Source of the DNA: a virus
Length of the DNA stretch: 52,163 bases
Reading direction: 5' to 3' (one strand)
Virus record (IMG/VR): IMGVR_UViG_3300025888_000001
Part shown: in pieces, positions 5,912-37,294 of the stretch
How the letters are laid out: every line of letters starts with the position of its first letter
Position numbering within the stretch: the first letter of the stretch is position 1
Notes under the pieces: model-generated
Database searches by the model: none
The model's input: only the letters and a program-made list of their open reading frames with translations
What the model was told of the DNA's origin: nothing
Translations under genes and position numbers: made by a program

Positions 5912-6121
5912 ATGGATATTTTAGATATTATAAAAAATGCAGATGACGACGAATTAGCTGCAAAAAGAATAATATTTTTTATAAATGAGTTAATAAAAAA
6001 TACATTAACTGATTATACGAAATATTTAGTAAAAAATAGTTATTGTGATAGTGATGTTTATGAGGAGCCTACCGCAATAGACAGATTTTTAATATTAGAT
6101 AAACAAAAAGAAAATGGATAA
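5912..6121 (+). CDS. Hypothetical protein
   Basis: 69-aa ORF that overlaps the portal start. Confidence 0.45.
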   Translation: MDILDIIKNADDDELAAKRIIFFINELIKNTLTDYTKYLVKNSYCDSDVYEEPTAIDRFLILDKQKENG

Positions 6122-7898
6122 AGTTGACGGGTTAGAATTACTGAAAACGGTAATTGATAAAGAATTAAAACATCAGGACTATGAGCGAGTGACTGAACTT
6201 GCTGATAAATACTACAAGATGAAGACCGGTGATGATATTACTGATCTTCTTGTAAAGATTGTAACCAGGGAAACAGAGGAAGAATTTGAACAACGTGAGA
6301 ACATCTCAAAGTCCGTTGTGCCTTCGATACTTAATTCTACACAACTGCCATTTCAGAAAGCAGTCAGGAAACAGCCACTACTGAGGGAAATACTTTACAA
6401 AGGATCAGATAATAAAAAAGAACTTGAGTTGATTCTCGGTAAGTACTGGGGGGAGAAGTCAATTGAGGAGTATCTTGAATACTCAATCATTGACTATAAC
6501 TACATTGATCCTAATGCCTTTCTGATTACTGAGTTTGAGGCTTTTAATTCTGATATTGAGAAAGCCAAACCCTATCCTTTCGTTGCTACATCAGAGGATG
6601 CAATAATGTTTGAATTTAAGAATGAAATACTTCAGTATCTTATTGTCCGACTCCCAATTAAGTTTATGGAGAAAGAAACTGAACGCGATGGCTCTAAATT
6701 TACAATGTATTTAGGTCCAGACACAATTCAGCTAACTCAGGTTGCAACTGATTACACTATTCAGAGTGGCGAAACAGTTATTAAGATCAAGGAAGATTTC
6801 TATTTATATCAGGAGTTTGAGCCTAAGGCATCGAAAGTCCCTGCTCAGAGATTTGGTTATCTTCGTGATCCGGAAACAAAAGGACGGACATTCGTATCTG
6901 TATTTCATTGCATAATTCTACTTCTTGAGAAGTTAATGAAATCTGACTCAGAACTTGATCTTTCAACAGCAATGACTGCTTTCCCTCAGAGGTTTGCTTA
7001 TGTTGATAAATGTTCAAATCCTGATTGTGCCGGTGGTCATCTTCTTGATGGTAAAACAATCTGCGGAACATGTAACGGAACGGGGATGCAACCTTTACAT
7101 AGTGGAGTTAAGGATGTTGTTACGCTTGCACTTCCTCGAAACCCGGCTGAAATGATTGATCTTGAAAAGATGCTCGTTTATAAAGCCCCTCCTGTCGAAC
7201 TCTTGACTTTTAGTAAGGATTACATTGATTATCTTCGGGTATTGGTTCATACAATGATGTTTAATAACGAGATCGCAACACGTTCAGAGACAGCGACAGC
7301 GGTAACAGCAACCGAGATGAACTTCGGAACCGATAATATGAACGATACTCTTTACCCATTCGCACGTAATTATTCAAGTCTTTGGGAGTTTGTTGTTCAG
7401 GATGTTGCAACATTTACGGATTTAGGTGAAGGGTTAACACTTCATCATGAGTTCCCTAATGACTTTAAAATGAAGGGCATTCTTGAACTTGCAACTGAGT
7501 TAAAGGCTTTCAAAGATGCAGGAGCGTCAACTTCAACTATATCAGCCGTTGAAGATGATATAAACGAAATACTCTACTCCGACCGTCCGGGTGATCTTAA
7601 AAAGATTCAGGTCAAGTCTCAAATGAATCCTTTCAGGGGTTACTCTGAAGCAAATGTCAGGCTTTTGATCTCACAAGGCATGACAACTGATTACTATGCT
7701 ACTCTATGGGCAAACCTTGAGGTTGTGTTCAATCAACTTGAAGGTGAGTTTCCTGATATTTATAACATGAATCCTGCGGTGATTAATGAGAAAGTCAAAG
7801 CAAAGACTTTAGAGATCATGGCAGAGATGAAAGCCTCGGCAGATTTAGCAGCAAAACGGGCAGCGTTAAGTAATCCATTTCAACCAGCATTAAACTAA
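6114..7898 (+). CDS. Putative portal protein with an embedded Cys4 zinc-finger-like motif
   Basis: 594 aa, the first large gene after terL. Contains CSNPDC-x12-CGTCNGTG. Confidence 0.6.
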   Translation: MDKVDGLELLKTVIDKELKHQDYERVTELADKYYKMKTGDDITDLLVKIVTRETEEEFEQRENISKSVVPSILNSTQLPFQKAVRKQPLLREILYKGSDNKKELELILGKYWGEKSIEEYLEYSIIDYNYIDPNAFLITEFEAFNSDIEKAKPYPFVATSEDAIMFEFKNEILQYLIVRLPIKFMEKETERDGSKFTMYLGPDTIQLTQVATDYTIQSGETVIKIKEDFYLYQEFEPKASKVPAQRFGYLRDPETKGRTFVSVFHCIILLLEKLMKSDSELDLSTAMTAFPQRFAYVDKCSNPDCAGGHLLDGKTICGTCNGTGMQPLHSGVKDVVTLALPRNPAEMIDLEKMLVYKAPPVELLTFSKDYIDYLRVLVHTMMFNNEIATRSETATAVTATEMNFGTDNMNDTLYPFARNYSSLWEFVVQDVATFTDLGEGLTLHHEFPNDFKMKGILELATELKAFKDAGASTSTISAVEDDINEILYSDRPGDLKKIQVKSQMNPFRGYSEANVRLLISQGMTTDYYATLWANLEVVFNQLEGEFPDIYNMNPAVINEKVKAKTLEIMAEMKASADLAAKRAALSNPFQPALN

Positions 7899-8488
7899 TG
7901 CGCTTTAGTGTCATAATGCCCTCGCGACTCATTCCATACAAAGGAAGTTGTCAATTTCCTGAAAAGAAAATCATCAGGGCAATTCAATCTGTACTAAATC
8001 AATCGTTTAGAGATTTTGAGTTGATTGTTATTGCTGATGATTGTCTTAAAACAAAGAACATAGTTACAAAACTATTTCCAGAGGTTATATTATTAGAATG
8101 CAAACACAAAGCATTATTTGACAACCTTCCCCGGAATACAGGTATTGAGAATGCGAAAGGCGATTACATTATTTACATTGATGTTGATGATTATTGGGGT
8201 CCAGATCATTTGGCAATTATCGAAAAGAATTTGAATGATCATGACTGGGTCTGGTATAATGACATTATTTTCAATGGCGAATGGATTGAACGTGCCTGTA
8301 ATATCAAAGCTATGGGAGGATGTGGAACATCAAATGTCTGCTATAAACGAAGCCTGAACCTTAAATGGGACAGACCGGGATATGCTCATGACTTCTATTT
8401 CAATCAGAAGTTACTCAGATTTAAAGGTGCAAAGATTGAAACACCTGAATACTTTGTTTGTCACATACCATCTGTATATGACTGTTAG
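7898..8488 (+). CDS. Glycosyltransferase family 2
   Basis: FSVIMPSR..., NQSFRDFELIVIADDC, RNTGIENAKGDYIIYIDVDDYW (DxD). TAATG overlap with the portal stop. Confidence 0.7.
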   Translation: MRFSVIMPSRLIPYKGSCQFPEKKIIRAIQSVLNQSFRDFELIVIADDCLKTKNIVTKLFPEVILLECKHKALFDNLPRNTGIENAKGDYIIYIDVDDYWGPDHLAIIEKNLNDHDWVWYNDIIFNGEWIERACNIKAMGGCGTSNVCYKRSLNLKWDRPGYAHDFYFNQKLLRFKGAKIETPEYFVCHIPSVYDC

Positions 8489-9236
8489 TGATACACATAG
8501 AAATAAATATGCCAGAAAGTGGTATGCTGCTAATAAAGAAAGAATATTAGCTAAGAATAGAAAACATATTAAAACTGCCGAACAAAAAGAAGCTCATAAA
8601 ATAGCGTCGCAAAAATATTATAAGAACAATAAAATAAAATGTCGTGAATCATCGAAGAGATGGAAGGAATTATATTTTTTAAGAGAAATTAGACCAGCGA
8701 AAAATTTAACAGATGAAGAGATACTACAAAATAAGAGAAAATCTAATAAATTATGGAGAGATAAAAATAAGCAACTAAACAAAGAGAAGGATAGATTAAA
8801 ATATCTCAGAAGAAAACCAATTATTCAGCAACGAAATAAAGAGAATAGGGAAGTAATAAATAAAAAATATCTTGAGCATACTAATAAACGATTTAAGTCT
8901 GATCCTTTATTTAAATTAAGTAGAAACGTGCCAAAACTTTTAAGAATATCTATTAAAAGAGCTGGGTTCTCGAAGAAATCTAAAACATATCAAATATTGG
9001 GATGTACATTTGAAGAGTTTAAAACACATATTGAGAACAAATTTGAACACTGGATGAATTGGGATAATTATGGCAAATACGACGGATCGATTGGATATGG
9101 ATGGGAGTTCGATCATATCATTCCTGTTTCTTCTGCGACATCCGAAGAGGAAATAATAAAATTAAACCATTATTCAAACTTTCAGCCATTAGATGGATTT
9201 ACAAATCGCTATATAAAACGAAATAAGGTAGCATGA
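8478..9236 (+). CDS. HNH endonuclease with a Lys/Arg-rich repeat N-terminal region
   Basis: C-terminal WEFDHIIPVSS...NFQPL...N..K (HNH). N-terminal repeated K..YY..NK... motif. KSDPLFKLSRN is shared with 13521..13979. Confidence 0.6.
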   Translation: MTVSDTHRNKYARKWYAANKERILAKNRKHIKTAEQKEAHKIASQKYYKNNKIKCRESSKRWKELYFLREIRPAKNLTDEEILQNKRKSNKLWRDKNKQLNKEKDRLKYLRRKPIIQQRNKENREVINKKYLEHTNKRFKSDPLFKLSRNVPKLLRISIKRAGFSKKSKTYQILGCTFEEFKTHIENKFEHWMNWDNYGKYDGSIGYGWEFDHIIPVSSATSEEEIIKLNHYSNFQPLDGFTNRYIKRNKVA

Positions 9237-9880
9237 ATAAAATTTATTGTTTCTGGACCGGTACAAATGAAATTACTCCAGCAAGGGTAAACGGGTTAAA
9301 TGAACTTCAGTTAAAGTCTGGTTGTGATGTGGTTCTTATCACTCCTGAAAATTTACCTGAATACATTACAGAACCCTTGCATCCTGCTTATGAATATCTG
9401 TCATTGGTTCACCGCTCAGACTATCTAAGGGCTTATTTCATGCACTATCATGGAGGTGGCTATTCAGATATTAAACCCGGGGTTCATTCGTGGTTGTCCG
9501 CTTTTAATAAACTTGGTAATTCATGGGTATTAGGTTATAAAGAACTTGGTCCGGGAGTTGTTGCGATCTGTACTCATAAACCAATGATGCAAAGAACACT
9601 ACAGTCTAATTGGCATCAATTAATTGGATGCGGGGCTTTTATTTGCAAACCTCATACATTTTTTACATCTGAATGGTTGAGAGAGGCCGATGACTTATTA
9701 ACTTATAAATATGATCTGTTAAAAAAGTATCCCGGTAATACGCTTGGAAACAATGCCGGTTATCCCTTGTTATGGACAGAGTTACTTGGTGATATATTCC
9801 ATCCTTTAGTATTAAAATACAACGACAAAATAGTTCAGGATAATTCAATAAAACCTGATTTTACAAAAAATTATAGATAA
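9233..9880 (+). CDS. Glycosyltransferase, Caps_synth / DXD-sugar-binding-like
   Basis: IYCFWTG...P...RSDYLRAYFMHYHGGGYSDIK resembles the sD.lR..lL..yGG.y.D. motif of capsular polysaccharide synthesis glycosyltransferases. Confidence 0.5.
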   Translation: MNKIYCFWTGTNEITPARVNGLNELQLKSGCDVVLITPENLPEYITEPLHPAYEYLSLVHRSDYLRAYFMHYHGGGYSDIKPGVHSWLSAFNKLGNSWVLGYKELGPGVVAICTHKPMMQRTLQSNWHQLIGCGAFICKPHTFFTSEWLREADDLLTYKYDLLKKYPGNTLGNNAGYPLLWTELLGDIFHPLVLKYNDKIVQDNSIKPDFTKNYR

Positions 9881-10356
9881 TGGATCCATTTGCAACACAT
9901 CAACCAGTATTAGAATATGCAGTAAAAAATTCAATAGGCCCGGTTTTAGAGATAGGCTGTGGATATGGATCAACTGAATTATTACACAATCTTTGTAAAG
10001 ACAGAACACTTGTAACAATTGAGACAAATAAAGAATGGTATGAATTATTCAAACATTTTGCATCATCAAATCATATCATACTTTGTGCTGATAGTTATGA
10101 TGCCTTTGATTCATTAGTAAGATATTCCGACTGGGCAGTTGTATTTGTGGATCATGCACCAGGCGAAAGGCGAAATATTGAAATTGAGAAGGCCGTCAAT
10201 GCTCAGTTTGTAGTTATTCACGACACGCACGACCCGGCTTATGAATATGGGAAAACCTTGCCTTTATATAAATTTCAATACAAGTATGAGAAACTGATTC
10301 CTTATACATCGGTTGTTTCAAATATTAATGATCTGGAAATATTTAAAGAGTTATGA
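9880..10356 (+). CDS. Class I SAM-dependent methyltransferase
   Basis: Motif I VLEIGCGYGST, then VVFVDHAP. TAATG overlap with the upstream gene. Confidence 0.6.
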   Translation: MDPFATHQPVLEYAVKNSIGPVLEIGCGYGSTELLHNLCKDRTLVTIETNKEWYELFKHFASSNHIILCADSYDAFDSLVRYSDWAVVFVDHAPGERRNIEIEKAVNAQFVVIHDTHDPAYEYGKTLPLYKFQYKYEKLIPYTSVVSNINDLEIFKEL

Positions 10357-10440
10357 CAAATAATTATATACTATGATCGGGGTATTGGTTTTAATCATTT
10401 TGATTTTGTTATGTTTTGATATAAAAATTAAGTGGAAAAA

Positions 10441-10620
10441 ATGACATTGAGCGAATTTATTAATATAAGTACGGCAGAATTTAATGGAAAAGAATGGGTA
10501 GTTACTATTCCTTTATTTGATGGTACAACTGGAAAATTATTTGCGAGTAAAGCTGGTAACGAATATGAGGCAAAAGAACAGGCGTTCCTTTATTTAACGA
10601 ATTATTTTGAAAATAAATGA
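10441..10620 (+). CDS. Hypothetical protein
   Basis: Short ORF. The ATG at 10441 is preferred over the GTG at 10432. Confidence 0.4.
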   Translation: MTLSEFINISTAEFNGKEWVVTIPLFDGTTGKLFASKAGNEYEAKEQAFLYLTNYFENK

Positions 10621-11252
10621 CTTATGATCTTATCATAGTATCAAAGAGTTCAGAGTTATCTCTAATAATGATGACACAAAATTGCATTAAGTCAGCCAGA
10701 AAAGATAATGCTGAATTAAATATCATTGTCGTGGAAACAGGAGTTAAACATAATTATGATGCAGAGAATATTGTCATGTATGAAGGAGCATTTAATTATA
10801 ATAGGGCTTTAAATCTTGGTTTGAAATATGCTAAATCAGATATTCAGATCCTTGCTAATAATGATATTATATTTCATAAAGGATGGTCAACGATTGGCGA
10901 GATAATGCAGGTTAATGAATATTTATCGGCATCAGCAATGAGTAATGCAACTCAATACAGAAGATTCAAGAAAGGTATGCTTGCTTACGAGGGCTATGGC
11001 ATTGGTCTTGAAATGGCCGGCTGGTGTATCTTCACTCAGAAAAAACTCTGGAATAAAATTAAGAAGCTGGACGAAAGACATACATTCTGGTTCTCTGATA
11101 ATGCTTATGCCGATCAGTTGAAACAGAAAGGGATTAAGCACGCTCTAATTTGTTCAGTTCAGGTTGATCATTTAGAGTCAAGAACATTTAAAAGAATGGA
11201 TAGGGCAACTCAAAGCAAATTTACACATCCTGAAGGATCGCCATGGGTTTAA
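10617..11252 (+). CDS. Glycosyltransferase family 2-like
   Basis: LIIVSKSS..., IIVVETG, NYNRALNLGLKYAKSDIQILANNDIIFHKGW (GT-A pattern). Confidence 0.55.
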   Translation: MTYDLIIVSKSSELSLIMMTQNCIKSARKDNAELNIIVVETGVKHNYDAENIVMYEGAFNYNRALNLGLKYAKSDIQILANNDIIFHKGWSTIGEIMQVNEYLSASAMSNATQYRRFKKGMLAYEGYGIGLEMAGWCIFTQKKLWNKIKKLDERHTFWFSDNAYADQLKQKGIKHALICSVQVDHLESRTFKRMDRATQSKFTHPEGSPWV

Positions 11253-11262
11253 TAAAAAATAT

Positions 11263-11499
11263 ATGAGCCAGATAAAGACATCGGAGAAACTTATTCATAA
11301 AATCTATCGCAGGAACTTCACTGACTTAGGTATGTTTTTCTACGTCATGGGTCAAAGGGATATTGTACCGGCCATGAGTGTTGAGAAAGCTATGTATAAT
11401 TATTTCAAATCAATTGGGGAAGAAGATTTTAATATCGAAAGTTCAATGACGACATTTTGCAGGTTACAGAAAGAGTTTTATCAAACAAAGAAATCATGA
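11263..11499 (+). CDS. Hypothetical protein
   Basis: 78-aa ORF in the array. Confidence 0.45.
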   Translation: MSQIKTSEKLIHKIYRRNFTDLGMFFYVMGQRDIVPAMSVEKAMYNYFKSIGEEDFNIESSMTTFCRLQKEFYQTKKS

Positions 11500-11553: not shown

Positions 11554-12333
11554 ATGAAAACATCCGGCATATATAAAATACAATCTTTAATAAAGCCAGA
11601 ACGCTGTTATGTTGGTAGTGCTGTTGATATAAAGAAAAGATGGAATGGTCATTTACATGATTTAAGGAATTATAAACACCACTCGATTAAACTCCAAAAT
11701 CATTACAACAAATATGGAGAAAAGGATTTAATATTTTCTATTTTAGAACTACATGATTCTGTAAATTTATTAATAAGAGAACAGTATTTCATAGACACTT
11801 GTAATCCGTTTTTTAATATACTACCAACAGCGGGCAATCATTTAGGCGCAAAGAGATCTATTGAGTCATGTAAAAAAATAAGTGAAGCAAAAAAAGGTAA
11901 TAAAAATTACATGTTTGGAAGAACACAATCTAAAGAAATGCGTGATAAAGTATCATTATCTTTAAAAGGCAATAAGCACGCTTTAGGTCATAATCATTCA
12001 GAAGAAACAAAAAGAAAAATATCAATTGCCAGCACAGGAAGATCGCATATTGTTATAGAAATCACAAAAAATAAAATATCAACAGCAAATACCGGTAAGC
12101 CATCTTCTATGAAGGGTAAACACCATACTGAAGAGACAAAGAGAAGATTAAGTGAATTAAATATCGGACGTAAGCACACGATAGAAACTAAAATTAAGAT
12201 ATCTCAAGGATTAATCGGGATAAAAAGATCCCCACATTCAGAAATATCTAAACAAAAGCATAGTTTATGTATAAGAGAAGCATGGAAGTCAGGTAAATAC
12301 AGTTTAAGACAGACGGCAAATGAAAATACCTAA
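11554..12333 (+). CDS. GIY-YIG homing endonuclease with NUMOD3-like repeats (I-TevI-like)
   Basis: GIYKIQS...YVGSAVDIKKRW..H, REQYFID, and repeated G.KHS.ETK.KIS units. Confidence 0.8.
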   Translation: MKTSGIYKIQSLIKPERCYVGSAVDIKKRWNGHLHDLRNYKHHSIKLQNHYNKYGEKDLIFSILELHDSVNLLIREQYFIDTCNPFFNILPTAGNHLGAKRSIESCKKISEAKKGNKNYMFGRTQSKEMRDKVSLSLKGNKHALGHNHSEETKRKISIASTGRSHIVIEITKNKISTANTGKPSSMKGKHHTEETKRRLSELNIGRKHTIETKIKISQGLIGIKRSPHSEISKQKHSLCIREAWKSGKYSLRQTANENT

Positions 12334-13306
12334 AAGGATATCAGAACTCCTCTTAAAGAAACAGGCATTCATTGATTTTCATAGAGGAAGATTAGAAAAA
12401 ACTGTTCTGAAATTACAAACTGATTTGACGGATAAAATTATTCTTGAAATAATACCTTTATTAGAAATAACAAAAGAGGGAAGAATAGCAGATACGGTAA
12501 GTAACTATCAGTTATTAGGTCAGATGGATAAGGTCTATAAAGGCCTTACGAATATGTCATCTTCATTGATCTCCAATCAGATGTCAGGAGTAATAACCGG
12601 AATAATAAACTTAGGAAAGAGTTATTTTACTATTGCAATGGCTGATAATTTGGCCTTTAGGTTTGATAAGGTAGTCGATGCGACTGCAAAGAAAATGAAT
12701 ATCCGTATCGGTTTGGACGGTGGTCAGATGGTACATGGTGGTTATCTTGAATCGTTTCTTAAAGATCAGACATTAGGCACTCAGATTAAAAACTACATTG
12801 CTAAGTCTGTCACAGGTCAGATTGATACAAAGGATTTTATTAGTGGATTAACTGATCTTGTTAAAGGTGTTCCGCACATTGATAAAAACGGTTTCACAAT
12901 TCAAACAGGCGCACTTGAGAAACAGTTCGAGAGATATGGTTATGATTTGTACCAGCAATTTGATGCCGCTTATAATTCCACTTTAGCTCAGGAGTTTGAA
13001 ATGAACTATTTCATTTATCAGGGTGGGTTAATAAAGGATTCCAGAGATTTCTGTGCAGCTCATAATAATAAAGTATTTTCAAGAGAAGAAGCTGTTGAAT
13101 GGGTTAATTGGACTCCTTCGATGGGTGATTATCCCGCTGGATATGTGGTTAAGCAAAAAGACATGGGTGATCATCCTTCATATATGAGCTATCCTGGTTA
13201 CACTCCGTTAGTTGATCGCGGGGGTTATAATTGTAGGCATATGTTGGGATGGATTTCAGACGAATTAGCTATATCTTTACGTCCTGACTTAAAACCTACA
13301 ATATGA
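12320..13306 (+). CDS. Head morphogenesis protein, Mu F / SPP1 gp7-like
   Basis: C-terminal RDFCAAHNNKVFSREE...GGYNCRHML resembles the Phage_Mu_F motif. Located in the head module. Confidence 0.55.
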   Translation: MKIPKRISELLLKKQAFIDFHRGRLEKTVLKLQTDLTDKIILEIIPLLEITKEGRIADTVSNYQLLGQMDKVYKGLTNMSSSLISNQMSGVITGIINLGKSYFTIAMADNLAFRFDKVVDATAKKMNIRIGLDGGQMVHGGYLESFLKDQTLGTQIKNYIAKSVTGQIDTKDFISGLTDLVKGVPHIDKNGFTIQTGALEKQFERYGYDLYQQFDAAYNSTLAQEFEMNYFIYQGGLIKDSRDFCAAHNNKVFSREEAVEWVNWTPSMGDYPAGYVVKQKDMGDHPSYMSYPGYTPLVDRGGYNCRHMLGWISDELAISLRPDLKPTI

Positions 13307-13520: not shown

Positions 13521-13979
13521 ATGGAACGGACTTGCAAGAAATGCGGAGAAACAAAGCCGATTGAGGAGTTTGTAAAAAGGGCAAATAGTAAATATGTTCG
13601 TTATTCATGTAAATTATGTGCGAACAAGAACGGAAAACTCGCAAATAAGAAATTCTATAAAAATCATAAGAATCAGATAAATGAAGGGTGTCGTAATTAT
13701 TATAACGAACATAAAAAAAGGATAAATCAAAGAAGTTTGCAGTATATTAGTAATAAAATGAAAAGTGATCCTATTTTTAGAGCAAAACGCAATGCTCTTC
13801 ATAGAAAAATAGATAATAAATGCACGGCTTTACTTTCTGATAGATATGTGGCAAATAACATTAGGTTACTTACAGGGATCTCTGTAAGAGTAATTCAACA
13901 ACATCCCGAATTAATAGAATGTAAACGATTAATAATTAAAATTAAAAGACTAGCAAATGAAAACAGTAACAGAACTTAG
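13521..13979 (+). CDS. Zinc-ribbon / basic-repeat protein, a paralog of the N-terminal part of 8478..9236 that lacks the HNH domain
   Basis: CKKCGETK...CKLCANK. KSDPIFRAKRN aligns with KSDPLFKLSRN. No H-N-H motif is present. Confidence 0.5.
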   Translation: MERTCKKCGETKPIEEFVKRANSKYVRYSCKLCANKNGKLANKKFYKNHKNQINEGCRNYYNEHKKRINQRSLQYISNKMKSDPIFRAKRNALHRKIDNKCTALLSDRYVANNIRLLTGISVRVIQQHPELIECKRLIIKIKRLANENSNRT

Positions 13980-14211
13980 AGATAAACTTCTCGATAACAT
14001 TAAAAAAATGGAATCAGGTGAACTTGACAAAACACTGGCATCCGAAATAGCGAATCATGCTGGTAAAATTATTAAGACTGCGGCCGTTGAATTACTTTAT
14101 AATATATCAACAGGACAAAAAGAAAAACTCATTGACTTTCTTCAAGGCAAGAAAGTAATTGAGTCAAAATCCCCCTACAAAATTATTGATGAGATTAATG
14201 AGGGAAAATGA
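13957..14211 (+). CDS. Hypothetical protein
   Basis: 84-aa ORF overlapping the upstream stop. Confidence 0.45.
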   Translation: MKTVTELRDKLLDNIKKMESGELDKTLASEIANHAGKIIKTAAVELLYNISTGQKEKLIDFLQGKKVIESKSPYKIIDEINEGK

Positions 14212-14284
14212 ATTATTCCCTATAACTTATCAGGGGCTTTTTATTCAAAATTATTTCTTAACTTTACCAATAAATAATACAACT

Positions 14285-14560
14285 ATGAAAAAACTTCTAT
14301 TTTTACTCGCTATTGTGTTCCTATTGAGTTGTCAAAAGGAATCCTGTTATACCTGTACATTGACTTATCGCACTTCAACATCCGGCGGCGGTTATGCTTC
14401 TAATTCTAATGCAGGAACAACAACTACAACGGTAAATAAATGTAATGTAACAGATAAAGAGATTGCTAGTTTTATCAAAGAGTCCAGCGTATCAGCAACG
14501 GTAAACTCCGGGGGCATATCGGCTACAACAACGTCAACGTGTGGTTGTGTTAAGGAATAA
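14285..14560 (+). CDS. Small Cys-rich lipoprotein (moron copy 1)
   Basis: MKKLLFLLAIVFLLSC lipobox, then CYTC...C...CGCVKE. Start taken at the internal MKK. Confidence 0.65.
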   Translation: MKKLLFLLAIVFLLSCQKESCYTCTLTYRTSTSGGGYASNSNAGTTTTTVNKCNVTDKEIASFIKESSVSATVNSGGISATTTSTCGCVKE

Positions 14561-14589: not shown

Positions 14590-14620
14590 AGCCCCTGATT
14601 AATTTCAGGGGCTTTTATTC
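14590..14620 (+). terminator. Hairpin terminator between the two lipoprotein genes
   Basis: agcccctga / ttaatt / tcaggggct, a perfect 9-bp stem followed by tttatt. Confidence 0.6.
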
Positions 14621-14656: not shown

Positions 14657-14941
14657 ATGAAAAAATTAGCATTTATTTTGTTTATTGTATTAGCATTTTC
14701 CTGTAAAAAGGATGATCCTAATTGTTATGTCTGTAAGATTGACTCTGTCAGTTATGCTGGTTCCGGAACTACTATCATCAGACAGTCGCATATTAACGCG
14801 ACACCTTGCGACTTATCTGCTGCTGATGTTCTGACTTATGAATCATCCAGAACAGGAACAGTGATAACACATGAACAAAATGGGATATTTGGGACATTGA
14901 CAGTAACAACGGTTGGTTCTTGCCGGTGTGTAAAACAATAA
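14657..14941 (+). CDS. Small Cys-rich lipoprotein (moron copy 2)
   Basis: MKKLAFILFIVLAFSC lipobox followed by KKDD, then CYVC...C...CRCVKQ. Same Cys pattern as copy 1. Confidence 0.65.
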   Translation: MKKLAFILFIVLAFSCKKDDPNCYVCKIDSVSYAGSGTTIIRQSHINATPCDLSAADVLTYESSRTGTVITHEQNGIFGTLTVTTVGSCRCVKQ

Positions 14942-14960
14942 TATTCTTGCGATTAAACGT

Positions 14961-15003
14961 GGGGGTCGTTAACTTTAACCAGAAGTTCAACCCCCTTTTT
15001 TTG
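14961..15003 (+). terminator. Terminator after the lipoprotein pair
   Basis: An imperfect gggggt...accccc stem followed by a run of 8 T. Confidence 0.55.
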
Positions 15004-19310: not shown

Positions 19311-19960
19311 ACAACAAAATCGCCAATATCATTAAAGGGTACGTTGAAGATTTAACCTGGATCGATAAGATTTCAGGATTAGTCCAAACGGTTGTCGTAA
19401 TGGTTCCGAGTGGAAAAGACACAGCGGTTCAAAAAAGCTATCCTGTTTCATGTAACATAACTGCCGATGCGTGTAAAAAAGGCGGGTATCAGGATCTTTG
19501 TCCTGACTCAAAAAAGAAGTCGGTTGTTTATTTTGAGGATCGCGGAATACAAGAAGTTAGCCGTTATGGCAATAGAATAACGTTTAAATCTAATTTACGT
19601 TTAGTTGCATGGTTGAATTTATGCCTAATTTCTGATTCTTGTGGCACCTCAGGCGATTATGTTATTGATGTGATAAGATCATTACCAAATAGGCCATTTA
19701 GCGTACCGGGCTTTGTAAACATATCTATTGCATTAATAACACAGGCTGAAAGAGATGTTTCGATATTCTCAAAATACACTTACTCAGAAACTATGGTTCA
19801 GTATTTACTTTATCCATTTGATTTTTTTGCGTTAGATATTTCTATTGACTTTACGATACCGTGTGTTGATGCCGGAAGTTTATTACATCCTACCGGAAGT
19901 GTAGATGTTGACAGCACAACGGTATCTGTTGATGATCCTTTAGTTGCAGTTGATGATTAA
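19307..19960 (+). CDS. Hypothetical tail-module protein (possible tail tube or tail completion protein)
   Basis: 217 aa. Assigned by position only. Confidence 0.3.
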   Translation: MNNKIANIIKGYVEDLTWIDKISGLVQTVVVMVPSGKDTAVQKSYPVSCNITADACKKGGYQDLCPDSKKKSVVYFEDRGIQEVSRYGNRITFKSNLRLVAWLNLCLISDSCGTSGDYVIDVIRSLPNRPFSVPGFVNISIALITQAERDVSIFSKYTYSETMVQYLLYPFDFFALDISIDFTIPCVDAGSLLHPTGSVDVDSTTVSVDDPLVAVDD

Positions 19961-19970
19961 AATAAATGAT

Positions 19971-22900
19971 ATGAAAAAGATTTTAATATTTGGGTTTTTA
20001 ATTTGCTTTTTAATATCCTGTGCTACAGTAGATTCTGGAAAGTCTATAAAAGATAATAAGCACCCGATTAAAACAAGAACTATTGGCGATGTCGGGACTG
20101 TTCCCATGAACGTGGGTACTAAACTTAATGTAGCATTTCCAATTATTAATACTGCTATTGACAGGGTAAATCTTAATACTGCTAATATTTTATTAAGAGC
20201 ACCAATTAATAATGCCTCTCTAACAGGATTAACAACTCTTGAACAACTAAAACTATCTGCCGGAGGCGTTACGATTACGGCCATCACTTCTGATGGGACA
20301 TATATTCATTTCTGGTCAGGATTAACAGAACTTGCAACCATCCCTGGCAGTAGTGGTTCAACATGGGGAACAATCACAGGGACACTATCAAGTCAAAATG
20401 ATTTAACAAGCGCCTTAAATGCGAAAGCTCCTGTTTCGACTACAATGACCACTTCTCACGCTGCCAATGCAATTACATCAACAGATATAACACATTGGGG
20501 TTTAGCTTACGGTTGGGGCAATCATGCTTCTGCGGGGTACATTGCAGGAACACGGACAGTAAATGGTCATCCACTTTCAAGCAATGTTACAGTTACTGCA
20601 GCAGACCTAAATCTGGGTTATGTAACAAATGAGAGCAAGGCTACAATGTTTACCAATTCCTCTTTTACTGGGACATTTACTCTAGGGGGGACTGTCTTAG
20701 CTTCAACAGCAGCTAACTTGAATGTTTTATATAATACTTCGGTTACTCCTACAATACTTAGTTATCTTGATGCTACAAGTCCTATACAAGCTCAATTTGG
20801 TGGTAAAGAGCCATTATTAGGCAATCCACTTGTTACGGGATATGTATTATCTTCTACAACCGGTGGAGTTAGATCATGGGTTGCTCCCGGAGGAGACCTT
20901 AGTATTTACAGACGATTAAATAATCATGATTCTTTAAGTACCTTACAAGAAAAAGCATATAGTTCATTGAGTAGCAAACCTACTCTCGGAACAGCTTCAG
21001 CTCAGGATGTAGGATATTTTGCCACCGCTGCACAGGGAACTGATGCACGTACTCCCGTTTCTCACGCACATGGGAATATAACTAATGTCGGAGCAATAGG
21101 ATCGACTGCTGCTTTACCTGTGATAACTACAACTTCGGGTGTTCTGACGGTCAGCTCTTTTGGTATATCAGCTGGTACCTTTACTCAGGGTAATGATTCA
21201 AGATTAACTTATTCTGATGCTACTTCATCTATACAGGGACAGTTAGATGCAAAGATCAATGCTGATTATGTCATTGAGAAAATTGCAAGTACTTATTATG
21301 CCCGTCCATCGGGAAGTCTTACCGCTTATTCAAATGCGAGTGCTTCTTCAGTTATTAATTCGGCACTTGGTCAACTTACTTCAGGGGGTAAAATATATTT
21401 GAATTTTAAGGGTGTTGTTTGGGATAACTGTGATTCAATAAGAATCAGTTACAATAACATAACAATCGAAGGGTCTGATAAATACAGTGGTGGCTTAAAA
21501 ATAAAGGCGAATAAGGATATAGGAAGAACTAGCACTATGTCAATGTTTTGGATTGCCTATGGCGTGAATAATGCAACATTTCGTAATCTTCAGATAGACG
21601 GTAATAAGTCCAATCAATCTAAGGCGTGGGAGGTTACTAATGTTAATGCGAGAATTTGTGGTATTACTGGTTTTGGAGATGGTACGGATAAGGTATTGAT
21701 TGAAAATTGTTATGTGCATGATTTTACACAGTATGGAATTTATCTTACCAATTTATTTGGGTCTATAATTAGAGATAACGAGGTTAAAGATAATGATGAA
21801 AACAATATTACAAACTTTGCGTTTAGCAGCGTGATTGAAAGAAATAAATTTAGTGGAAGTAATTCTGTCAGTGTTAGTTGTTATGAAGATGATAATATTG
21901 TTAGAGACAACGAATTTGGTAACATGACAGGTCATCTTCGTGATAACTTTGCACTTGCATTTGAAGTCGATGAAGGAGATGCTACTAATGTAGCTACAAG
22001 ATGTAAGGCAATACATAATACAATAACCGGGACTAATATAACTACCGGGATTGGATTGGCGGCAGGTTCATTAAACTGTGAAATATCAGATAATACAATT
22101 GATAATATAACAGGAGGAACTTGGTGTAGTGGCATATCTATGCACTCAGACTCAGGAACTGTAGTTCATAATAATAAGATAACAAGGATTAGTCCGGGAG
22201 TTGCAATAGAATTATCTGGGAGTCAGTCAGATGTTATTTCAGAAAATAATATTTCTTTTTCAACAATGGATTACGGTATACACCTGCAAGATTTGGGAGC
22301 AGTATATGCCACAAATAATATAATTAGAAGCAATACTATACAAACACATAACTTCGCTTTATGGCTAGCAGGGCACTCTACTGATAATATAATAATAAAT
22401 AATATTATAAATATTCCTACGATTTATGCTGGTACAAAGGAATTATTGGAAGCTGCAACTGCTATAAATAATATATATATGAATAATTACGCACCCGGAA
22501 CGAGTGGTTCTGGTTGGAAAATTGGTTGGTTAAATAATACCGGATTATGGCAGACTCATGCAACAGCAACGTCAGATGGTTTAACAACAGGATTAATAAC
22601 CCCCGGTTCCCAAAACATAACAGTAACATCAGCAAGTGCATACGATATAATTACATTACCCACTGCAAGTGCAACAACGATAGGAACAAAAATAACTGGA
22701 ATAGTGACAGCTAATGGTTGCGAATTAAGGGTTCCAGATACACAAGCAATCACTGTTTATATTAACGGAGTAACTACCAATGTGGAGTCGGATATTCCTG
22801 CCAATAGTTCTTTTGAGGTTACTTGTATTGATGCTACACATTGGATATTGAAAGCATGGACGAACTTAGGAGCACCAATTACGGCAATAGTACCAAATTC

Positions 22901-23933
22901 AGTATCATTCATAACAACATGGAATACTGAAAATGCCGGATCAGCAACTAAGGTTATTGTAATACCCACTACCGGGGCAGGTTATGACTTTTATGCGGAT
23001 TGGGGAGATGGTAGTGCAGAGGCACATATAACAGGAACAGCACCAAGTACAACACATACCTATGCAACAACTGGTGTAAAAACAATTAGTATAAGGGGTG
23101 CATTCCCAAGAATATATTTTAATAATGGTGGAGATAAGTTAAAACTTCTTTCTGTTGCTCATTGGGGAACGGGTGTTTGGAGTTCAATGCAGAATGCTTT
23201 TTATGGATGTGCAAACCTGACTGGCACTTATACTGATTATCCAAATACTGCATCAGCAACTTCTATGGCCCAAATGTTTCGTGGATGTACTGCATTTAAT
23301 AGTGCTGTTAATTTCAATACTGAAAATGTAACAGATATGTCTTTAATGTTTACTGCCTGTACGGTATTTAATCAATCTGTTGCAACATTCAATACTGTAA
23401 AAGTAGTAAATACAAATAGTATGTTTAACGGATGTGCTGCATTCAACCAATCTGTTGCTAGTTTTAATACTGCAAGTATAGAAGATTTATCCAGTATGTT
23501 TAATGGATGTACGGTATTCAATCAATCTGTTGCTAATTTCAATACTGCAAATGCGACTACCATTGCTAGTATGTTTGTCAATTGTGCTGCATTTAACCAA
23601 TCAGTTGCAGGATTCAATACTACAAAAGTAACTTCTATGTCTAGTATGTTTAACGGGTGTACACATTTTAACCAATCAGTTGCAGGATTTGATGTAACAT
23701 CCGTAACTACTATGACTAATATGTTTAATAGTTGTACAGCATTTTCAACAGCTAATTACGATGCTTTATTAATATCATTTGGGGCACAGGCAGTACAAAA
23801 TACTGTAACTCTAAATGTTCCGGTTACTAAATATACTGGTGGCGGGGGTGCGGCAACAGCAAGGGCACATTTAGTATTAGCAACAGGTAGTGGCGGACAT
23901 GGGTGGACAATAACAGATGCAGGAACGGTTTAG
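19971..23933 (+). CDS. Giant fibre-like protein: lipobox N-terminus + tail-fibre-like region + right-handed beta-helix + C-terminal 26-residue surface-protein repeats (DUF285/TIGR02167-like)
   Basis: MKKILIFGFLICFLISC; WGTITGTLSSQNDLTSALNAKA and SHAHGNITNVG fibre-type motifs; beta-helix turns such as NITIEGS, FRNLQIDGN, IENCYVHDF, IRDNEV; about 7 repeats of MFxGCxxFNQSVAxFNTxxVTx. Confidence 0.65.
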   Translation: MKKILIFGFLICFLISCATVDSGKSIKDNKHPIKTRTIGDVGTVPMNVGTKLNVAFPIINTAIDRVNLNTANILLRAPINNASLTGLTTLEQLKLSAGGVTITAITSDGTYIHFWSGLTELATIPGSSGSTWGTITGTLSSQNDLTSALNAKAPVSTTMTTSHAANAITSTDITHWGLAYGWGNHASAGYIAGTRTVNGHPLSSNVTVTAADLNLGYVTNESKATMFTNSSFTGTFTLGGTVLASTAANLNVLYNTSVTPTILSYLDATSPIQAQFGGKEPLLGNPLVTGYVLSSTTGGVRSWVAPGGDLSIYRRLNNHDSLSTLQEKAYSSLSSKPTLGTASAQDVGYFATAAQGTDARTPVSHAHGNITNVGAIGSTAALPVITTTSGVLTVSSFGISAGTFTQGNDSRLTYSDATSSIQGQLDAKINADYVIEKIASTYYARPSGSLTAYSNASASSVINSALGQLTSGGKIYLNFKGVVWDNCDSIRISYNNITIEGSDKYSGGLKIKANKDIGRTSTMSMFWIAYGVNNATFRNLQIDGNKSNQSKAWEVTNVNARICGITGFGDGTDKVLIENCYVHDFTQYGIYLTNLFGSIIRDNEVKDNDENNITNFAFSSVIERNKFSGSNSVSVSCYEDDNIVRDNEFGNMTGHLRDNFALAFEVDEGDATNVATRCKAIHNTITGTNITTGIGLAAGSLNCEISDNTIDNITGGTWCSGISMHSDSGTVVHNNKITRISPGVAIELSGSQSDVISENNISFSTMDYGIHLQDLGAVYATNNIIRSNTIQTHNFALWLAGHSTDNIIINNIINIPTIYAGTKELLEAATAINNIYMNNYAPGTSGSGWKIGWLNNTGLWQTHATATSDGLTTGLITPGSQNITVTSASAYDIITLPTASATTIGTKITGIVTANGCELRVPDTQAITVYINGVTTNVESDIPANSSFEVTCIDATHWILKAWTNLGAPITAIVPNSVSFITTWNTENAGSATKVIVIPTTGAGYDFYADWGDGSAEAHITGTAPSTTHTYATTGVKTISIRGAFPRIYFNNGGDKLKLLSVAHWGTGVWSSMQNAFYGCANLTGTYTDYPNTASATSMAQMFRGCTAFNSAVNFNTENVTDMSLMFTACTVFNQSVATFNTVKVVNTNSMFNGCAAFNQSVASFNTASIEDLSSMFNGCTVFNQSVANFNTANATTIASMFVNCAAFNQSVAGFNTTKVTSMSSMFNGCTHFNQSVAGFDVTSVTTMTNMFNSCTAFSTANYDALLISFGAQAVQNTVTLNVPVTKYTGGGGAATARAHLVLATGSGGHGWTITDAGTV
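23187..23760 (+). repeat. In-frame tandem repeats of about 78 bp (26 aa), about 7 units
   Basis: Recurrent ttyaaycaatcWgttgc...atgtttaayggRtgtrc blocks with a 78-nt period. Confidence 0.8.
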
Positions 23934-34349: not shown

Positions 34350-35942
34350 ATGCCGGGAATAGGAATAGGACTTTGGGTTGGTAAAAAAAGGGGAGGTGTT
34401 ACATGGACTCCACAATGGAATCCTGCAAATCCTCTATTAAGGGATAGTGAGGGTACTGTTCAAAATTTAAGATGTGTTCTTTTAATTTTGGGGGTTTACT
34501 ATTGTTATGAAGAGGACTTTTCAACAGTTTGGGAAATAAGGGTAAGGACTTCGGCAGACGGCATTACATGGTCGGCAGCATCTGGACCGCTATTTGCAAG
34601 AGGAAATGTAGGAACTTTTGATAGAGGAGGGCAGGCTGATCCGACAGTTATTTACGATGGGCCGGGTGATTGGAAGATGTGGTATGATGCCACTCCCGGA
34701 TCTGACGCTAACTGGACAGTCGGATATGCAACTTCAACAGATGGAATAACTTGGACTCAAGTCGGAAAAGTCATAGATAAAGGTGTTTCAGGTCAATGGG
34801 ATGATAATTCTATTCATCATTCTGTATGTATAAAAAACGGAACAACATATTATTTATATTATAGTGGGGCTAATACAACAGATTCAACTTTATTCGTCAA
34901 ACATATAGGATTAGCTACCTCATTAGACGGGATTAATTTCACAAAATTAGGAATTGTAATTCCTTCTGGAAGTGGGTCTGATTGGGATAAAAATTATGTT
35001 CGTCCTTCTAATCCGGTAAAAATGTATAATGCTTGGTATATGTGGTATTGGGGAAATGACATCACAAATCATGCAATGGGATTAGCTGTTTCCAAAGATC
35101 TTATTACATGGACAAAAAAAGGCAATGTAATTGCAAATCATTCAACAGCATCAACTGCCTTATTAAGAACAGGGACTGATGTAAAAGATAAGGTAATTAA
35201 GTTATGGGTTTGTGATTATGAAAATCAATCAACTAAAAAAAGATATATGATTCCAGAAGTAAGCATCGGGACTCCTATATCTCCTTTTGTTTATAATCAG
35301 GGGTTTGGAATATTGCCAACAACTGCTGGTGCTCCAGTTACAAAGGCTGCTAATTATATATATTTATATAGAGTGACGCTTGCAGCAATATCAACTCCTA
35401 CTACTATAAGACTATTTGTTAAATGGTATAGTGTAATTGGGAATATAAAAGCAGCTCTTTATCAAAATAATGTCAATACACCTACATCTTTATTGAAACT
35501 GACAGATGAAAAAGCATGGTCAACAATACCCGCAAATTCGTGGGTTGTTTTTAATATAATCAGTCCGACACAATTAAATGCAGGTGATTATTGGATTGCG
35601 TTTTTTTCATCAATAAATTACGATACACAAAGAGGTGCAGGAGGGGCAAATAATCATGGGAATCTTTCATTGGCTTATGGTGCATTTCCTGATCCAATTT
35701 CAGCGCCAACAAACCAAGCATTTAATATAGGTGATTTCGCTCTTACAGGTGATATGGAATTTGGTTATGGTGTTGCACTTGCAAGCGAACCAGCAAATGT
35801 ATATTTCAATGGAGTAAAAGGGGTTAAAAAAGCGACAGGAGCAGAAGTTGTTGCTCTATATGATTGGTTTTGGATAGGAGGTTATCTATATGTAAAAACT
35901 AATGAAGATACAGATATTAATTATCTTATAACTTATGATTAG
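34350..35942 (+). CDS. Glycoside-hydrolase-like five-bladed beta-propeller protein (GH43/32/130 superfamily-like) with a C-terminal beta-sandwich
   Basis: Blade-like repeats: GQADPTVIYDG..WKMWYDA, WDDNSIHHSVCIKNGTTYYLYYSG, WDKNYVRPSNPVKMYNAWYMWYWG, GLAVSKDLITWTK. Confidence 0.5.
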   Translation: MPGIGIGLWVGKKRGGVTWTPQWNPANPLLRDSEGTVQNLRCVLLILGVYYCYEEDFSTVWEIRVRTSADGITWSAASGPLFARGNVGTFDRGGQADPTVIYDGPGDWKMWYDATPGSDANWTVGYATSTDGITWTQVGKVIDKGVSGQWDDNSIHHSVCIKNGTTYYLYYSGANTTDSTLFVKHIGLATSLDGINFTKLGIVIPSGSGSDWDKNYVRPSNPVKMYNAWYMWYWGNDITNHAMGLAVSKDLITWTKKGNVIANHSTASTALLRTGTDVKDKVIKLWVCDYENQSTKKRYMIPEVSIGTPISPFVYNQGFGILPTTAGAPVTKAANYIYLYRVTLAAISTPTTIRLFVKWYSVIGNIKAALYQNNVNTPTSLLKLTDEKAWSTIPANSWVVFNIISPTQLNAGDYWIAFFSSINYDTQRGAGGANNHGNLSLAYGAFPDPISAPTNQAFNIGDFALTGDMEFGYGVALASEPANVYFNGVKGVKKATGAEVVALYDWFWIGGYLYVKTNEDTDINYLITYD

Positions 35943-36530: not shown

Positions 36531-37294
36531 GCGAAAATAAAAAACTTACGTTAGTCGATAGGGCTTTTGCTTTACCGGATTCGGAAAAAGAGTTTGGAAT
36601 GAAGATTGCCGATCATAAACTGATCTGTAATGTTCTTGATGACCATATGGATTCCATAATGGATAATGTGGATGAAAAGATACTTAAGACTTTACAGAGC
36701 GATACCCTCACTGATACAATTGCCGATAAGGTCTATGAGAAACTTGCTGAGTTCAATGCCCCTGTATTGTTAAAACTTGAAACGTTAATAAATGGTCAGA
36801 CTGAAATTGCTGAAGATATTTTTGAAATCAAAGAAAGGCTTTCTGCAACAGAAGAGAAAGTAGGGATAGAAGAAAAGCGGATTGAAGGTATTGATAAGCG
36901 GCTCGATGCAAAGAAAAAAAGAATCGAACGTCTCGAATCAGAAATGAGAATGTTGCAGCCGGAATCAATAGAAGAATATTCAATTGAGATACATAAGGTT
37001 AAACCAATTTTAGATAAAATTGTTAAAATGTTTTCATGGTGGCGAATAGCTATTTATATTCTGATAGTGGCCATACTTGCCGCTTTAGTGGTATTGACTT
37101 TACATAAAAATGGGTATCTCGGACAGTTAAGAAATGATAAACAATCTTATAAGGAATGGGCTAAAGAACTTGAAACACAACAGATAAAGGGTTATTCAAC
37201 AATCACAAGAGGAAGCACAGCTTATAAAATGACCGATGCAGAGATTGACACCCTTGAAAATCAAACATTAAGAACTATAAAGGCAAGGAAATGA
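36527..37294 (+). CDS. Coiled-coil protein with a C-proximal TM helix
   Basis: GTG start. EEKRIEGIDKRLDAKKKRIERLESEM, and TM segment WWRIAIYILIVAILAALVVLTL. Confidence 0.45.
   Translation: MSENKKLTLVDRAFALPDSEKEFGMKIADHKLICNVLDDHMDSIMDNVDEKILKTLQSDTLTDTIADKVYEKLAEFNAPVLLKLETLINGQTEIAEDIFEIKERLSATEEKVGIEEKRIEGIDKRLDAKKKRIERLESEMRMLQPESIEEYSIEIHKVKPILDKIVKMFSWWRIAIYILIVAILAALVVLTLHKNGYLGQLRNDKQSYKEWAKELETQQIKGYSTITRGSTAYKMTDAEIDTLENQTLRTIKARK

Follow-up and report, generated by a model that had tools for sequence, protein, structure and literature searches.

Which molecule do glycosyltransferases act on when a phage encodes them inside its own head operon? This question is raised by the IMG/VR virus record IMGVR_UViG_3300025888_000001, a stretch of 52,163 nucleotides (the whole of which is called the window below), in which three glycosyltransferase-type genes and the gene of a class I S-adenosylmethionine (SAM) methyltransferase stand between the portal gene and a putative MuF-like head morphogenesis gene. 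The comparison of 50 non-redundant related loci demonstrates that two of the glycosyltransferases, GT2a and GT3, are ancestral core genes of the head module in this phage lineage, together with the small conserved protein orf78, and that the step between them is a swappable module, occupied here by a glycosyltransferase of bacterial capsule type and by the methyltransferase. We tentatively propose, giving this reading a nearly even chance, that the cassette is a soluble, late-expressed pathway which glycosylates virion proteins, and that the exchange of the middle step changes the glycan and caps it with a methyl group.

Layout of the locus

Nearly all genes of the phage genome lie on the + strand, its GC content is about 35%, and no tRNA was detected in its 52 kb; since independent assemblies of the same sequence measure 52.0-52.2 kb, the window probably represents the whole genome. 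From position 3861 onwards the order is large terminase, four small open reading frames (ORFs), portal, cassette, MuF-like gene, a Glu/Lys-rich scaffold-like gene (at 15612) and then the capsid-region genes, with a capsid-like gene at 16453. All the ORFs listed in an initial annotation, made from the letters alone, were found again at the same coordinates on the + strand. The cassette genes are real and not chance ORFs, because homologues that conserve the catalytic motifs, at 45-85% identity, occur in dozens of independent metagenomic contigs. The interval first given for the cassette, 7898-11252, comprises genuine genes but stops short of orf78 and of a GIY-YIG/NUMOD3 gene, both of which precede the MuF-like gene. 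The region contains the following genes.

6114-7898, + strand: portal gene, the upstream anchor (PHROG 7376 portal, 2e-11); 52-84% identical in relatives and always upstream of GT2a
7898-8488, + strand: GT2a, a family-2 GT-A glycosyltransferase with a DxD motif, by its sequence (Pfam PF00535, 1.3e-13); constant enzyme
8478-9236 (longest ORF from 8382), + strand: HNH-like homing endonuclease, window-specific (DNA similarity to an annotated Flavobacterium phage gene)
9233-9880, + strand: predicted GT32/Caps_synth-like retaining GT-A glycosyltransferase (about 50% identity to bacterial proteins; AlphaFold2 (AF2) model); rare middle module
9880-10356, + strand: class I SAM methyltransferase, predicted to be COMT/CCoAOMT-like (motif I; AF2 model); rare middle module
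10441-10620 (alternative start 10432), + strand: orf59/62, a small window-specific ORF with no family match
10617-11252, + strand: GT3, a GT2-like GT-A glycosyltransferase (PHROG 22332, 1.3e-24); constant enzyme
11263-11499, + strand: orf78, a small protein between GT3 and the MuF-like gene, kept across related loci
11554-12333, + strand: GIY-YIG/NUMOD3 homing endonuclease, window-specific (Pfam NUMOD3 3.7e-25, GIY-YIG 3.2e-7; PHROG 314 at 9e-28)
12320-13306, + strand: putative MuF-like head morphogenesis gene, the downstream anchor (position; 41-82% identity downstream of orf78 in 37 loci)

The host group is probably Bacteroidota, as judged from one related contig binned in a Bacteroidales metagenome-assembled genome, from lipoprotein-type signals, from the lack of Shine-Dalgarno sequences upstream of the starts, and from the taxonomy of the few named homologues of the GT32-like transferase.

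Two constant glycosyltransferases and a swappable middle step

A blastn search with the DNA and a tblastn search with the portal against 50,697 deposited phage genomes returned no relative of this phage, and the comparisons were therefore made with IMG/VR contigs. Portal-based and GT3-based scans of IMG/VR gave about 90 related loci, and those that are non-redundant and contain both GT2a and GT3 number 50. The gene order in them is constant, namely terL, portal, a variable slot, GT2a, a middle element, GT3, orf78, MuF-like, scaffold-like and capsid-like gene. The portal is found upstream in all 46 loci having upstream sequence (52-84% identity), orf78 in 43 of the 50 and the MuF-like gene in 37, the remaining contigs being truncated. 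Because GT2a, GT3 and orf78 are kept between the portal and the MuF-like gene down to a portal identity of 52%, they are ancestral core genes of the head module in the lineage. The initial annotation had described the cassette as an island inserted between two normally adjacent genes; in the 50 relatives, however, GT2a, GT3 and orf78 separate these genes, and this synteny, together with the unremarkable GC content across the cassette region, rejects a recently inserted island.

The middle element is in 45 of the 50 loci a third family-2 enzyme, GT2b1 (about 203 aa, Pfam 1.7e-12, with a DND motif), in two loci a different one (GT2b2), and in two more there is nothing between GT2a and GT3. The GT32-like transferase and the methyltransferase occupy this place only in the window and in its nearest relative, L008. 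DNA alignment locates the boundaries of the exchange exactly at the end of GT2a (8470) and at the start of GT3 (10617), and identifies as insertions specific to the present genome the HNH-like gene (about 8471-9232), orf59 and the GIY-YIG gene. The middle step is thus a swappable module, and the variable parts of the cassette are the middle enzyme or enzymes, the two homing endonucleases and orf59. A few relatives of the GT2b1 type have homologues of the methyltransferase as well (28-38% identity), but ahead of terL.

The slot between the portal and GT2a measures 8-3038 bp in relatives and is a hot spot for accessory genes. Its contents in L005/L007, L006, L013/L014 and others include a DUF5131/radical-SAM-like gene (in many), a GIY-YIG gene, a small lipoprotein, and proteins of unknown function of 228, 334 and 487 aa.

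Enzymes encoded by the cassette

Profile, homology and fold evidence supports the initial assignment of three glycosyltransferase-type genes and one class I SAM methyltransferase, and the two motifs quoted for it, DVDD in GT2a and VLEIGCGYGST in the methyltransferase, are present. The classification by profiles and structures that it had called for returned a GT-A fold for the GT32-like protein, a methyltransferase fold for the 9880 product and a clear profile match for GT2a; the GT32-like protein, the methyltransferase and the GT3 of the window each score below the profile thresholds.

By its sequence GT2a is a clear family-2 glycosyltransferase, with 51.7 bits against PF00535 (E 1.3e-13), well above the gathering score of 23.3. 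In its motif YIDVDDYWG the residues D95, D97 and D98 are invariant in 9 relatives. Partial NCBIfam matches are to WcaA, TuaG and PglI, and the N-terminal residues 23-99 give a partial match to the PHROG 'GtrB-like O-antigen conversion' (2.6e-8). Among deposited phage genomes GT2a matches only the 735-kb 'huge phage' metagenomic assemblies LR756501.1 / LR756503.1 (563944-564552, 36% identity).

GT3 matches PHROG 22332 'glycosyltransferase' (1.3e-24). The window protein itself reaches 14.1 bits against PF00535, below the cut-off of 23.3; 14 of 16 members of the GT3 family match GT2 in Pfam, and the best Glyco_tranf_2_3 match is at 6.9e-6. The invariant motif ANND(I/L)xF aligns with the DxD of the relatives' GT2b, with which GT3 is collinear over 161 columns in hhalign (E 0.007), and a PDB sequence-profile search with GT3 gave nothing usable. 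Over about 190 aa GT3 is furthermore about 30% identical to glycosyltransferases of Gordonia phages and to gp17-type proteins of cluster J mycobacteriophages, in which the matching part is the C-terminal domain (E 1e-22 to 1e-26). In the Pfam scan the window glycosyltransferases had no match of TAGT or JGT type.

Hundreds of bacterial proteins, 210-310 aa long, share about 50% identity with the product of the 9233 gene along its whole length. Only a few of them bear a name, either 'capsular polysaccharide synthesis protein' or 'glycosyltransferase family 32 protein', and for many a match to PF05704 and/or PF04488 has been precomputed; the phage protein itself reaches 20.4 bits against Pfam Caps_synth, below the threshold of 24.5. 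An AF2 model built from 30 homologues has a predicted local distance difference test (pLDDT) score of 96.3, and its top Foldseek matches are YeGT, PaToxG, Och1, LgtC and SetA (E 1e-5 to 3e-4, TMq about 0.5), the best viral ones being 'DXD' glycosyltransferases of giant viruses and uncultured phages. On the basis of this model we are confident that the predicted enzyme has a retaining GT-A fold of the GT32/GT44/GT8 type. The 'DXD-like' label proposed before is therefore appropriate as to the fold but not as to the motif: the position reads D79-I80-K81, there is no canonical DXD, D79 and K81 do not vary among the 30 homologues, and in the alignment K81 stands opposite the second Asp in the DID of YeGT. 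The phage proteins of this family are without the basic N-terminal extension of 35-80 aa that their bacterial homologues have, one of which sits in a glycosyltransferase-rich bacterial locus (L018).

The methyltransferase, of 158 aa, belongs to a small family with 18 matches in an index of 5.8 billion proteins. Its motifs VLEIGCGYGST (SAM motif I), FIDHAPxERR and IHDT are all conserved, and its profile matches are all sub-threshold (Methyltransf_25 at 0.064, Methyltransf_24 at 6e-4 for one homologue, best PDB profile at 0.03). The AF2 model (pLDDT 96.1) finds in Foldseek cation-dependent O-methyltransferases (TMq 0.63-0.70, E about 1e-5), TrmR and the methyltransferase domain of WbdD, which terminates O-antigen, with TMq 0.55-0.70 overall. 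We are likewise confident, from this modelled fold, that the 9880 gene product would be an O-methyltransferase of COMT/CCoAOMT-like type. Its homologues adjoin glycosyltransferases in a bacterial GT25/GT92 locus (L104, 6001-6708) and, downstream of the terminase, in another phage (L105). An equivalence with the N-terminal domain of the gp17 fusion in cluster J phages was considered and rejected (E 0.08). Longer homologues of about 230 aa (P0132-P0138), one of which is that of the GT25/GT92 locus, have an N-terminal hydrophobic signal-like segment, which would be odd for a SAM enzyme if it were truly exported. A tblastn search of deposited phages with the GT32-like and methyltransferase proteins gave no match.

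By descent the cassette is a mosaic: GT2a is specific to the lineage, the GT2-like GT3 is shared with phages of cluster J and of Gordonia, the GT32-like enzyme is of capsule type and bacterial origin, and the O-methyltransferase is small and rare.

Clusters of tandem glycosyltransferase genes adjoining packaging, structural or replication genes were also seen in four unrelated phage contigs. L094 (4401-6648) contains two successive TAGT genes and then a GT3-like gene; L101 (3802-6654) a Stealth-like gene, two GT2 and then a GT3-like gene; L019 (7249-10114) a GT6, a GT32-like gene and then two GT2; and L105 (3758-6522), a few genes downstream of the terminase, a GT2, two unannotated genes and the methyltransferase homologue.

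Junctions, expression and location of the products

The overlaps of 1-11 nt reported initially exist at most junctions. The portal stop and the GT2a start share TAATG (-1), GT2a and the HNH-like gene overlap by 11 nt, the HNH-like and GT32-like genes meet in ATGA (-4), the GT32-like and methyltransferase genes in TAATG (-1), and orf59 and GT3 in ATGA (-4). Elsewhere there are gaps of 84 nt (methyltransferase to orf59), 10 nt (GT3 to orf78) and 54 nt (orf78 to the GIY-YIG gene), and the GIY-YIG and MuF-like genes overlap by 14 nt. No terminator-like hairpin was found on the + strand between 5644 and 12640. A sigma-70 promoter scan, which does not model Bacteroidota promoters and so is uninformative here, gave 49 sites against 63 expected. 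The cassette would accordingly be read, in our interpretation, together with the head genes late in infection. Its proteins have neither a transmembrane segment nor a signal peptide (maximum 19-residue hydropathy below 1.0), the latter as previously stated.

Proposed function and alternative acceptors

We propose that virion proteins would be glycosylated in the cytoplasm, before or during assembly. GT2a and GT3 would be the constant enzymes, one of them starting the glycan on the acceptor and the other adding a fixed sugar, from the nucleotide-sugar pools of the host. The step between them would be modular and performed by the third GT2 in most relatives. In the window and in L008, a GT32/Caps_synth-like transferase captured from bacterial polysaccharide loci and a COMT-like O-methyltransferase, with a sugar as its presumed target, would lead to a different, O-methyl-capped glycan.

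A virion acceptor is favoured, in the first place, because GT2a and GT3 are universal and locked in position in the head operon, unlike typical accessory genes of host conversion, and because the exchange of a single step is the pattern expected when selection diversifies a glycan that is exposed. Pointing in the same direction are the solubility of the enzymes, the loss of the N-terminal extension in the capsule enzyme that was captured, and the mycobacteriophage Corndog, which has a matching parts list at a matching place. Finally, cluster J phages, which hold the sole deposited GT3 homologues, keep four glycosyltransferases between their capsid and adaptor genes. Virion glycosylation of the kind seen in actinobacteriophages, already invoked in the initial annotation, is a reasonable leading candidate.

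Several observations weigh against this proposal. The acceptor is not readable from the sequence, and it is from the context that we infer a virion protein. Glycosylated mycobacteriophage proteins have Ser/Thr-rich C-terminal extensions; no convincing tail of this kind was found on the capsid-region proteins, and the putative capsid protein ends in a conserved NPxPC(S/D)xTNTG motif with short variable tails. The assignments of capsid, tail tube and MuF are themselves putative, and a PDB sequence-profile search with the putative capsid protein gave nothing usable. A place in a late operon is by itself no proof of a structural role. Lipid-linked intermediates of polysaccharides are the substrates of the closest cellular relatives of GT2a and of the GT32-like enzyme. 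In the unrelated phage L094 a homologue of GT3 (33% identity) adjoins the two TAGT genes, and by BLASTP and hhalign the window enzymes have no detectable homology to gp35-38 of Corndog beyond SAM motif I.

Some of these points lead to the alternative that survives best, although we consider it unlikely: the cassette would modify envelope glycans of the host late in infection, acting on undecaprenyl-linked precursors of capsule, O-antigen or other polymers at the cytoplasmic face of the membrane, and would in this way block superinfection or the adsorption of progeny to debris and sister cells. The best curated matches of GT2a are indeed the undecaprenyl diphosphate (Und-PP)-oligosaccharide transferases WcaA, TuaG and PglI, to which its partial GtrB-like O-antigen conversion match can be added, and the GT32-like enzyme shares about 50% identity with capsule-locus proteins of bacteria, with a homologue in the glycosyltransferase-rich locus L018. 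Peripheral GT2 enzymes require no transmembrane segment, the genome encodes exported lipoproteins and a GH130/43-like enzyme and so engages surface glycans of the host, and an envelope target is the published interpretation for the portal-capsid glycosyltransferases of 'Gratiaviridae' and Cellulophaga phage phi18:1 (PMC8008677, PMC11946311). However, conversion genes are usually accessory, patchy and often linked to lysogeny, whereas GT2a and GT3 are universal and fixed in the head operon, and Pfam and/or PHROG scans of nearly all + strand ORFs of 90 aa or more found no flippase, no GtrA/GtrC-type membrane protein, no polymerase and no integrase. The phage GT32-like proteins have also lost the basic N-terminal extension of the bacterial ones, and a remodelling of the envelope that starts at head assembly would have little time left.

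An acceptor of another kind is clearly improbable, with the position in the head operon as a historical accident. It could be a protein of the host, for example one that serves in defence or translation and would be modified in the manner of glycosylating toxins; it could also be some small molecule or a phage protein outside the virion, for which orf78 is a candidate. GT-A folds do not by themselves reveal function, and among solved structures the GT32-like model best matches toxins that glycosylate proteins (YeGT, PaToxG, SetA, TcdB), but these matches are weak (TM about 0.5) and reflect a shared retaining GT-A fold, while the relatives by sequence are polysaccharide enzymes. Moreover, with three transferases in sequence and a methyltransferase the product is more likely an oligosaccharide than one inactivating sugar, and orf78, strictly linked to GT3 as it is, is not Ser/Thr-rich beyond 15%.

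Least probable of all is the building of an oligosaccharide on a modified base before packaging, as a protection against host nucleases, with GT2a or GT3 as a DNA glycosyltransferase and the other enzymes extending and methylating its product. Such a role would suit a site beside the packaging genes, the GT3 homologue of L094 stands directly after two TAGT genes and before terminase and portal, and tandem phage GT-A enzymes are reported to make di- and trisaccharides on 5-hydroxymethylcytosine, the secondary transferases resembling lipopolysaccharide GT8 enzymes and the PBCV-1 capsid glycosyltransferase, in neighbourhoods that include terminase and structural genes (preprint of Pyle et al., 10.1101/2023.12.21.572611). 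All known DNA glycosylation nevertheless requires a hydroxylated base, by pathways that are usually clustered, and in the 52-kb genome Pfam and/or PHROG searches of nearly all + strand ORFs of at least 90 aa found no thymidylate-synthase homologue, TET/5mYOX dioxygenase or C5-cytosine methyltransferase; the sole DNA-modifying enzyme found is an N6/N4 methylase, the window glycosyltransferases lack a TAGT match, and no phage DNA polymerase or nucleotide-metabolism gene was seen.

Returning to virion glycosylation, a wider and more doubtful claim can be built on it, according to which this would be an ancestral and obligatory trait of a large lineage of uncultured Bacteroidota phages, the first for phages of Gram-negative hosts, with a 'capsid serotype' switched by exchange of the middle module and, in the window, a methyl-capped glycan made by the capsule-derived GT32-like enzyme and the O-methyltransferase. 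To our knowledge, only a few actinobacteriophages have been shown to glycosylate their own particles, which alters recognition by antibodies. If the conserved cassette of GT2a, middle enzyme and GT3 has the same role, virion glycosylation would also be a trait of an abundant Bacteroidota phage lineage, of environmental and gut type, the enzymes of which are unrelated, and on the wider claim the variation in glycan type of the particle would be analogous to O-antigen or capsule switching in bacteria, for example in the evasion of glycan-binding host defences, grazers, mucus or immune recognition. The natural cassette variants (third GT2, alternative GT2, none, GT32-like enzyme with methyltransferase) would then form a ready comparison set for the role and diversification of the glycan. 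Should the target be the host envelope or DNA, the locus would still define a glycan pathway of the late operon that is common to the lineage and clearly modular in its architecture. In addition, the cassette supplies enzymology with compact soluble glycosyltransferases and with an O-methyltransferase of 158 aa from a sparse family.

Flanking genes and other observations

The HNH-like protein has no Pfam, PHROG or PDB match. The label given to it initially stands on a DHIIP...N...N motif recognised by visual inspection, on resemblance at the DNA level to a Flavobacterium phage gene annotated 'putative HNH endonuclease', and on the lack of the gene in the closest relative; gene callers place its start at 8478, and the DNA of the region also matches huge-phage records. 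In L008, which is without this gene, 14 bp separate GT2a from the GT32-like gene; orf59 is missing there as well, so that the stop of the methyltransferase abuts the start of GT3. The GIY-YIG gene is missing at its position in the relatives, where orf78 abuts or overlaps the MuF-like gene. The genome as a whole is rich in homing endonucleases, with two GIY-YIG/NUMOD3 paralogues, two HNH_3 genes and the HNH-like gene (8478-9236, 11554-12333, 38750-39598, 42418-42930, 46212-46679), the paralogue of the GIY-YIG gene at 11554 being that of 38750-39598. The ORF 13521-13979 and the HNH-like protein of 8478 have a Lys/Asn-rich repeat region in common.

No Pfam or PHROG match was obtained for orf59, and no family match for orf78, the Ser/Thr content of which is not above 15%. 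The gene at 12320-13306, labelled MuF-like in the initial annotation and taken as such here from its position and from an NCRH-type C-terminal motif, had no match in Pfam, PHROG, PDB or the tblastn search of phages, and this assignment is unconfirmed; its C-terminal motifs GGYNCRH and DSRDFC are invariant in the relatives.

Between the MuF-like and scaffold-like genes lie two small Cys-rich and Ser/Thr-rich proteins with lipoprotein signals (14159-14560 and 14657-14941, both + strand; LLSC and FSC lipoboxes), followed by terminator-like hairpins at 14590-14613 and 14943-14966. They may be surface-exposed accessory proteins, for instance for superinfection exclusion. Further downstream, 19944-23933 (+ strand) encodes a protein of 1329 aa, with the head-completion genes on one side and the genes of tail chaperone and tape measure on the other. 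This protein has a lipoprotein-type signal (MKKILIFGFLICFLISC) and repeats that resemble a beta-helix, its C-terminal part carries an array of 'FNQSVAxFNT' repeats of about 26 aa, and it matches only PHROGs of unknown function. Among the tail genes, 34350-35942 (+ strand) encodes 530 aa with weak matches to beta-propellers of GH130/GH43 type (Pfam 4e-6), and its product may be a virion-associated enzyme that degrades host glycans. A caspase-type Peptidase_C14 of 263 aa (37942-38733, + strand; Pfam 6.6e-9) is encoded just 3' of the endolysin (37291-37737), which is unusual for a phage lysis region. The only DNA- or nucleotide-modifying candidates found were an N6/N4 DNA methylase (48246-48917, + strand; Pfam 9e-18) and a weak PAPS-reductase-like protein (49953-50783, + strand; 2.6e-4).

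Comparison with known systems

In chlorella virus PBCV-1 the protein A064R combines two rhamnosyltransferase domains with a sugar O-methyltransferase domain acting on the capsid glycan. The likeness to the window consists in viral cytoplasmic GT-A enzymes together with a SAM methyltransferase that caps a capsid glycan; on the other hand, A064R is a single three-domain protein of a eukaryotic giant virus and the glycan is N-linked. With the bacterial Caps_synth (PF05704)/GT32 proteins the 9233 gene product shares about 50% identity throughout, every invariant residue and, as modelled, the retaining GT-A fold, and it differs from them in the missing basic extension of 35-80 aa at the N-terminus and in its place in a head operon instead of a polysaccharide locus. 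Seroconversion systems of Gtr type differ from the cassette, which has no transmembrane segment, no integrase detected in its genome, and only the partial N-terminal match to the GtrB-like PHROG.

The clusters for sugar hypermodification of DNA (10.1101/2023.12.21.572611; Lee et al. PMC13326640) are similar in having tandem soluble GT-A enzymes of cellular polysaccharide ancestry, sometimes beside terminase or structural genes, and they differ in that no enzyme making a hydroxylated base and no TAGT/JGT-type match was found in the present genome. As to the hosts, the initial statement that nothing comparable is characterised for phages of this group stands, except that glycosyltransferases inside structural modules had been noted before, without functional tests, in 'Gratiaviridae' (PMC8008677) and as gp41 of Cellulophaga phage phi18:1 (PMC11946311). 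These phages also infect Bacteroidota and, as a trait conserved within their group, encode glycosyltransferase activity in the interval from portal to capsid; they have, however, a single glycosyltransferase (in 'Gratiaviridae' also a HipA-like kinase and an ATPase) and no modular three-enzyme pathway with a methyltransferase, and tblastn searches of the phage collection with the window enzymes did not return them.

In the cluster J phages (Omega, LittleE, Lucky2013) and Gordonia phages, the C-terminal domain of the gp17-type proteins is a true homologue of GT3. Lucky2013 has four glycosyltransferases between the major capsid and head-tail adaptor genes, and JonJames has glycosyltransferases and an HNH gene just upstream of the terminase. 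There the GT3 homologue is part of a two-domain fusion of 408-445 aa, annotated as methyltransferase in some records, and the partner enzymes are not homologous to GT2a or to the GT32-like enzyme.

The closest parallel in arrangement is Corndog (cluster O), in which an O-methyltransferase and three glycosyltransferases, gp35-gp38, are reported to modify the capsid and the tail tube (Freeman et al. 2023, as cited in PMC11600133 and PMC12363180). Both systems comprise one methyltransferase and three glycosyltransferases; in Corndog the portal gp34 is followed by the methyltransferase gp35, the glycosyltransferases gp36-38 and then the capsid gene, in both the enzymes are soluble, and both lie in the late structural operon. 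Since no homology to gp35-38 is detectable, the resemblance is only positional and compositional, and on this comparison the cassette is to be regarded as analogous and not homologous. The methyltransferase is the first enzyme in Corndog and the third here, the host is of actinobacterial, Gram-positive type there and Bacteroidota here, and function is experimental there whereas here it is read from the genes alone. Virion glycosylation of the Che8/Corndog/Myrna type is marked by glycosyltransferase genes of the phage, in some cases joined by a methyltransferase gene, that lie within the structural operon or next to it, and the window has such an arrangement. Judged by analogy, it is the virion-glycosylation cassettes of actinobacteriophages, along with A064R of PBCV-1, that the present cassette would most resemble in function.

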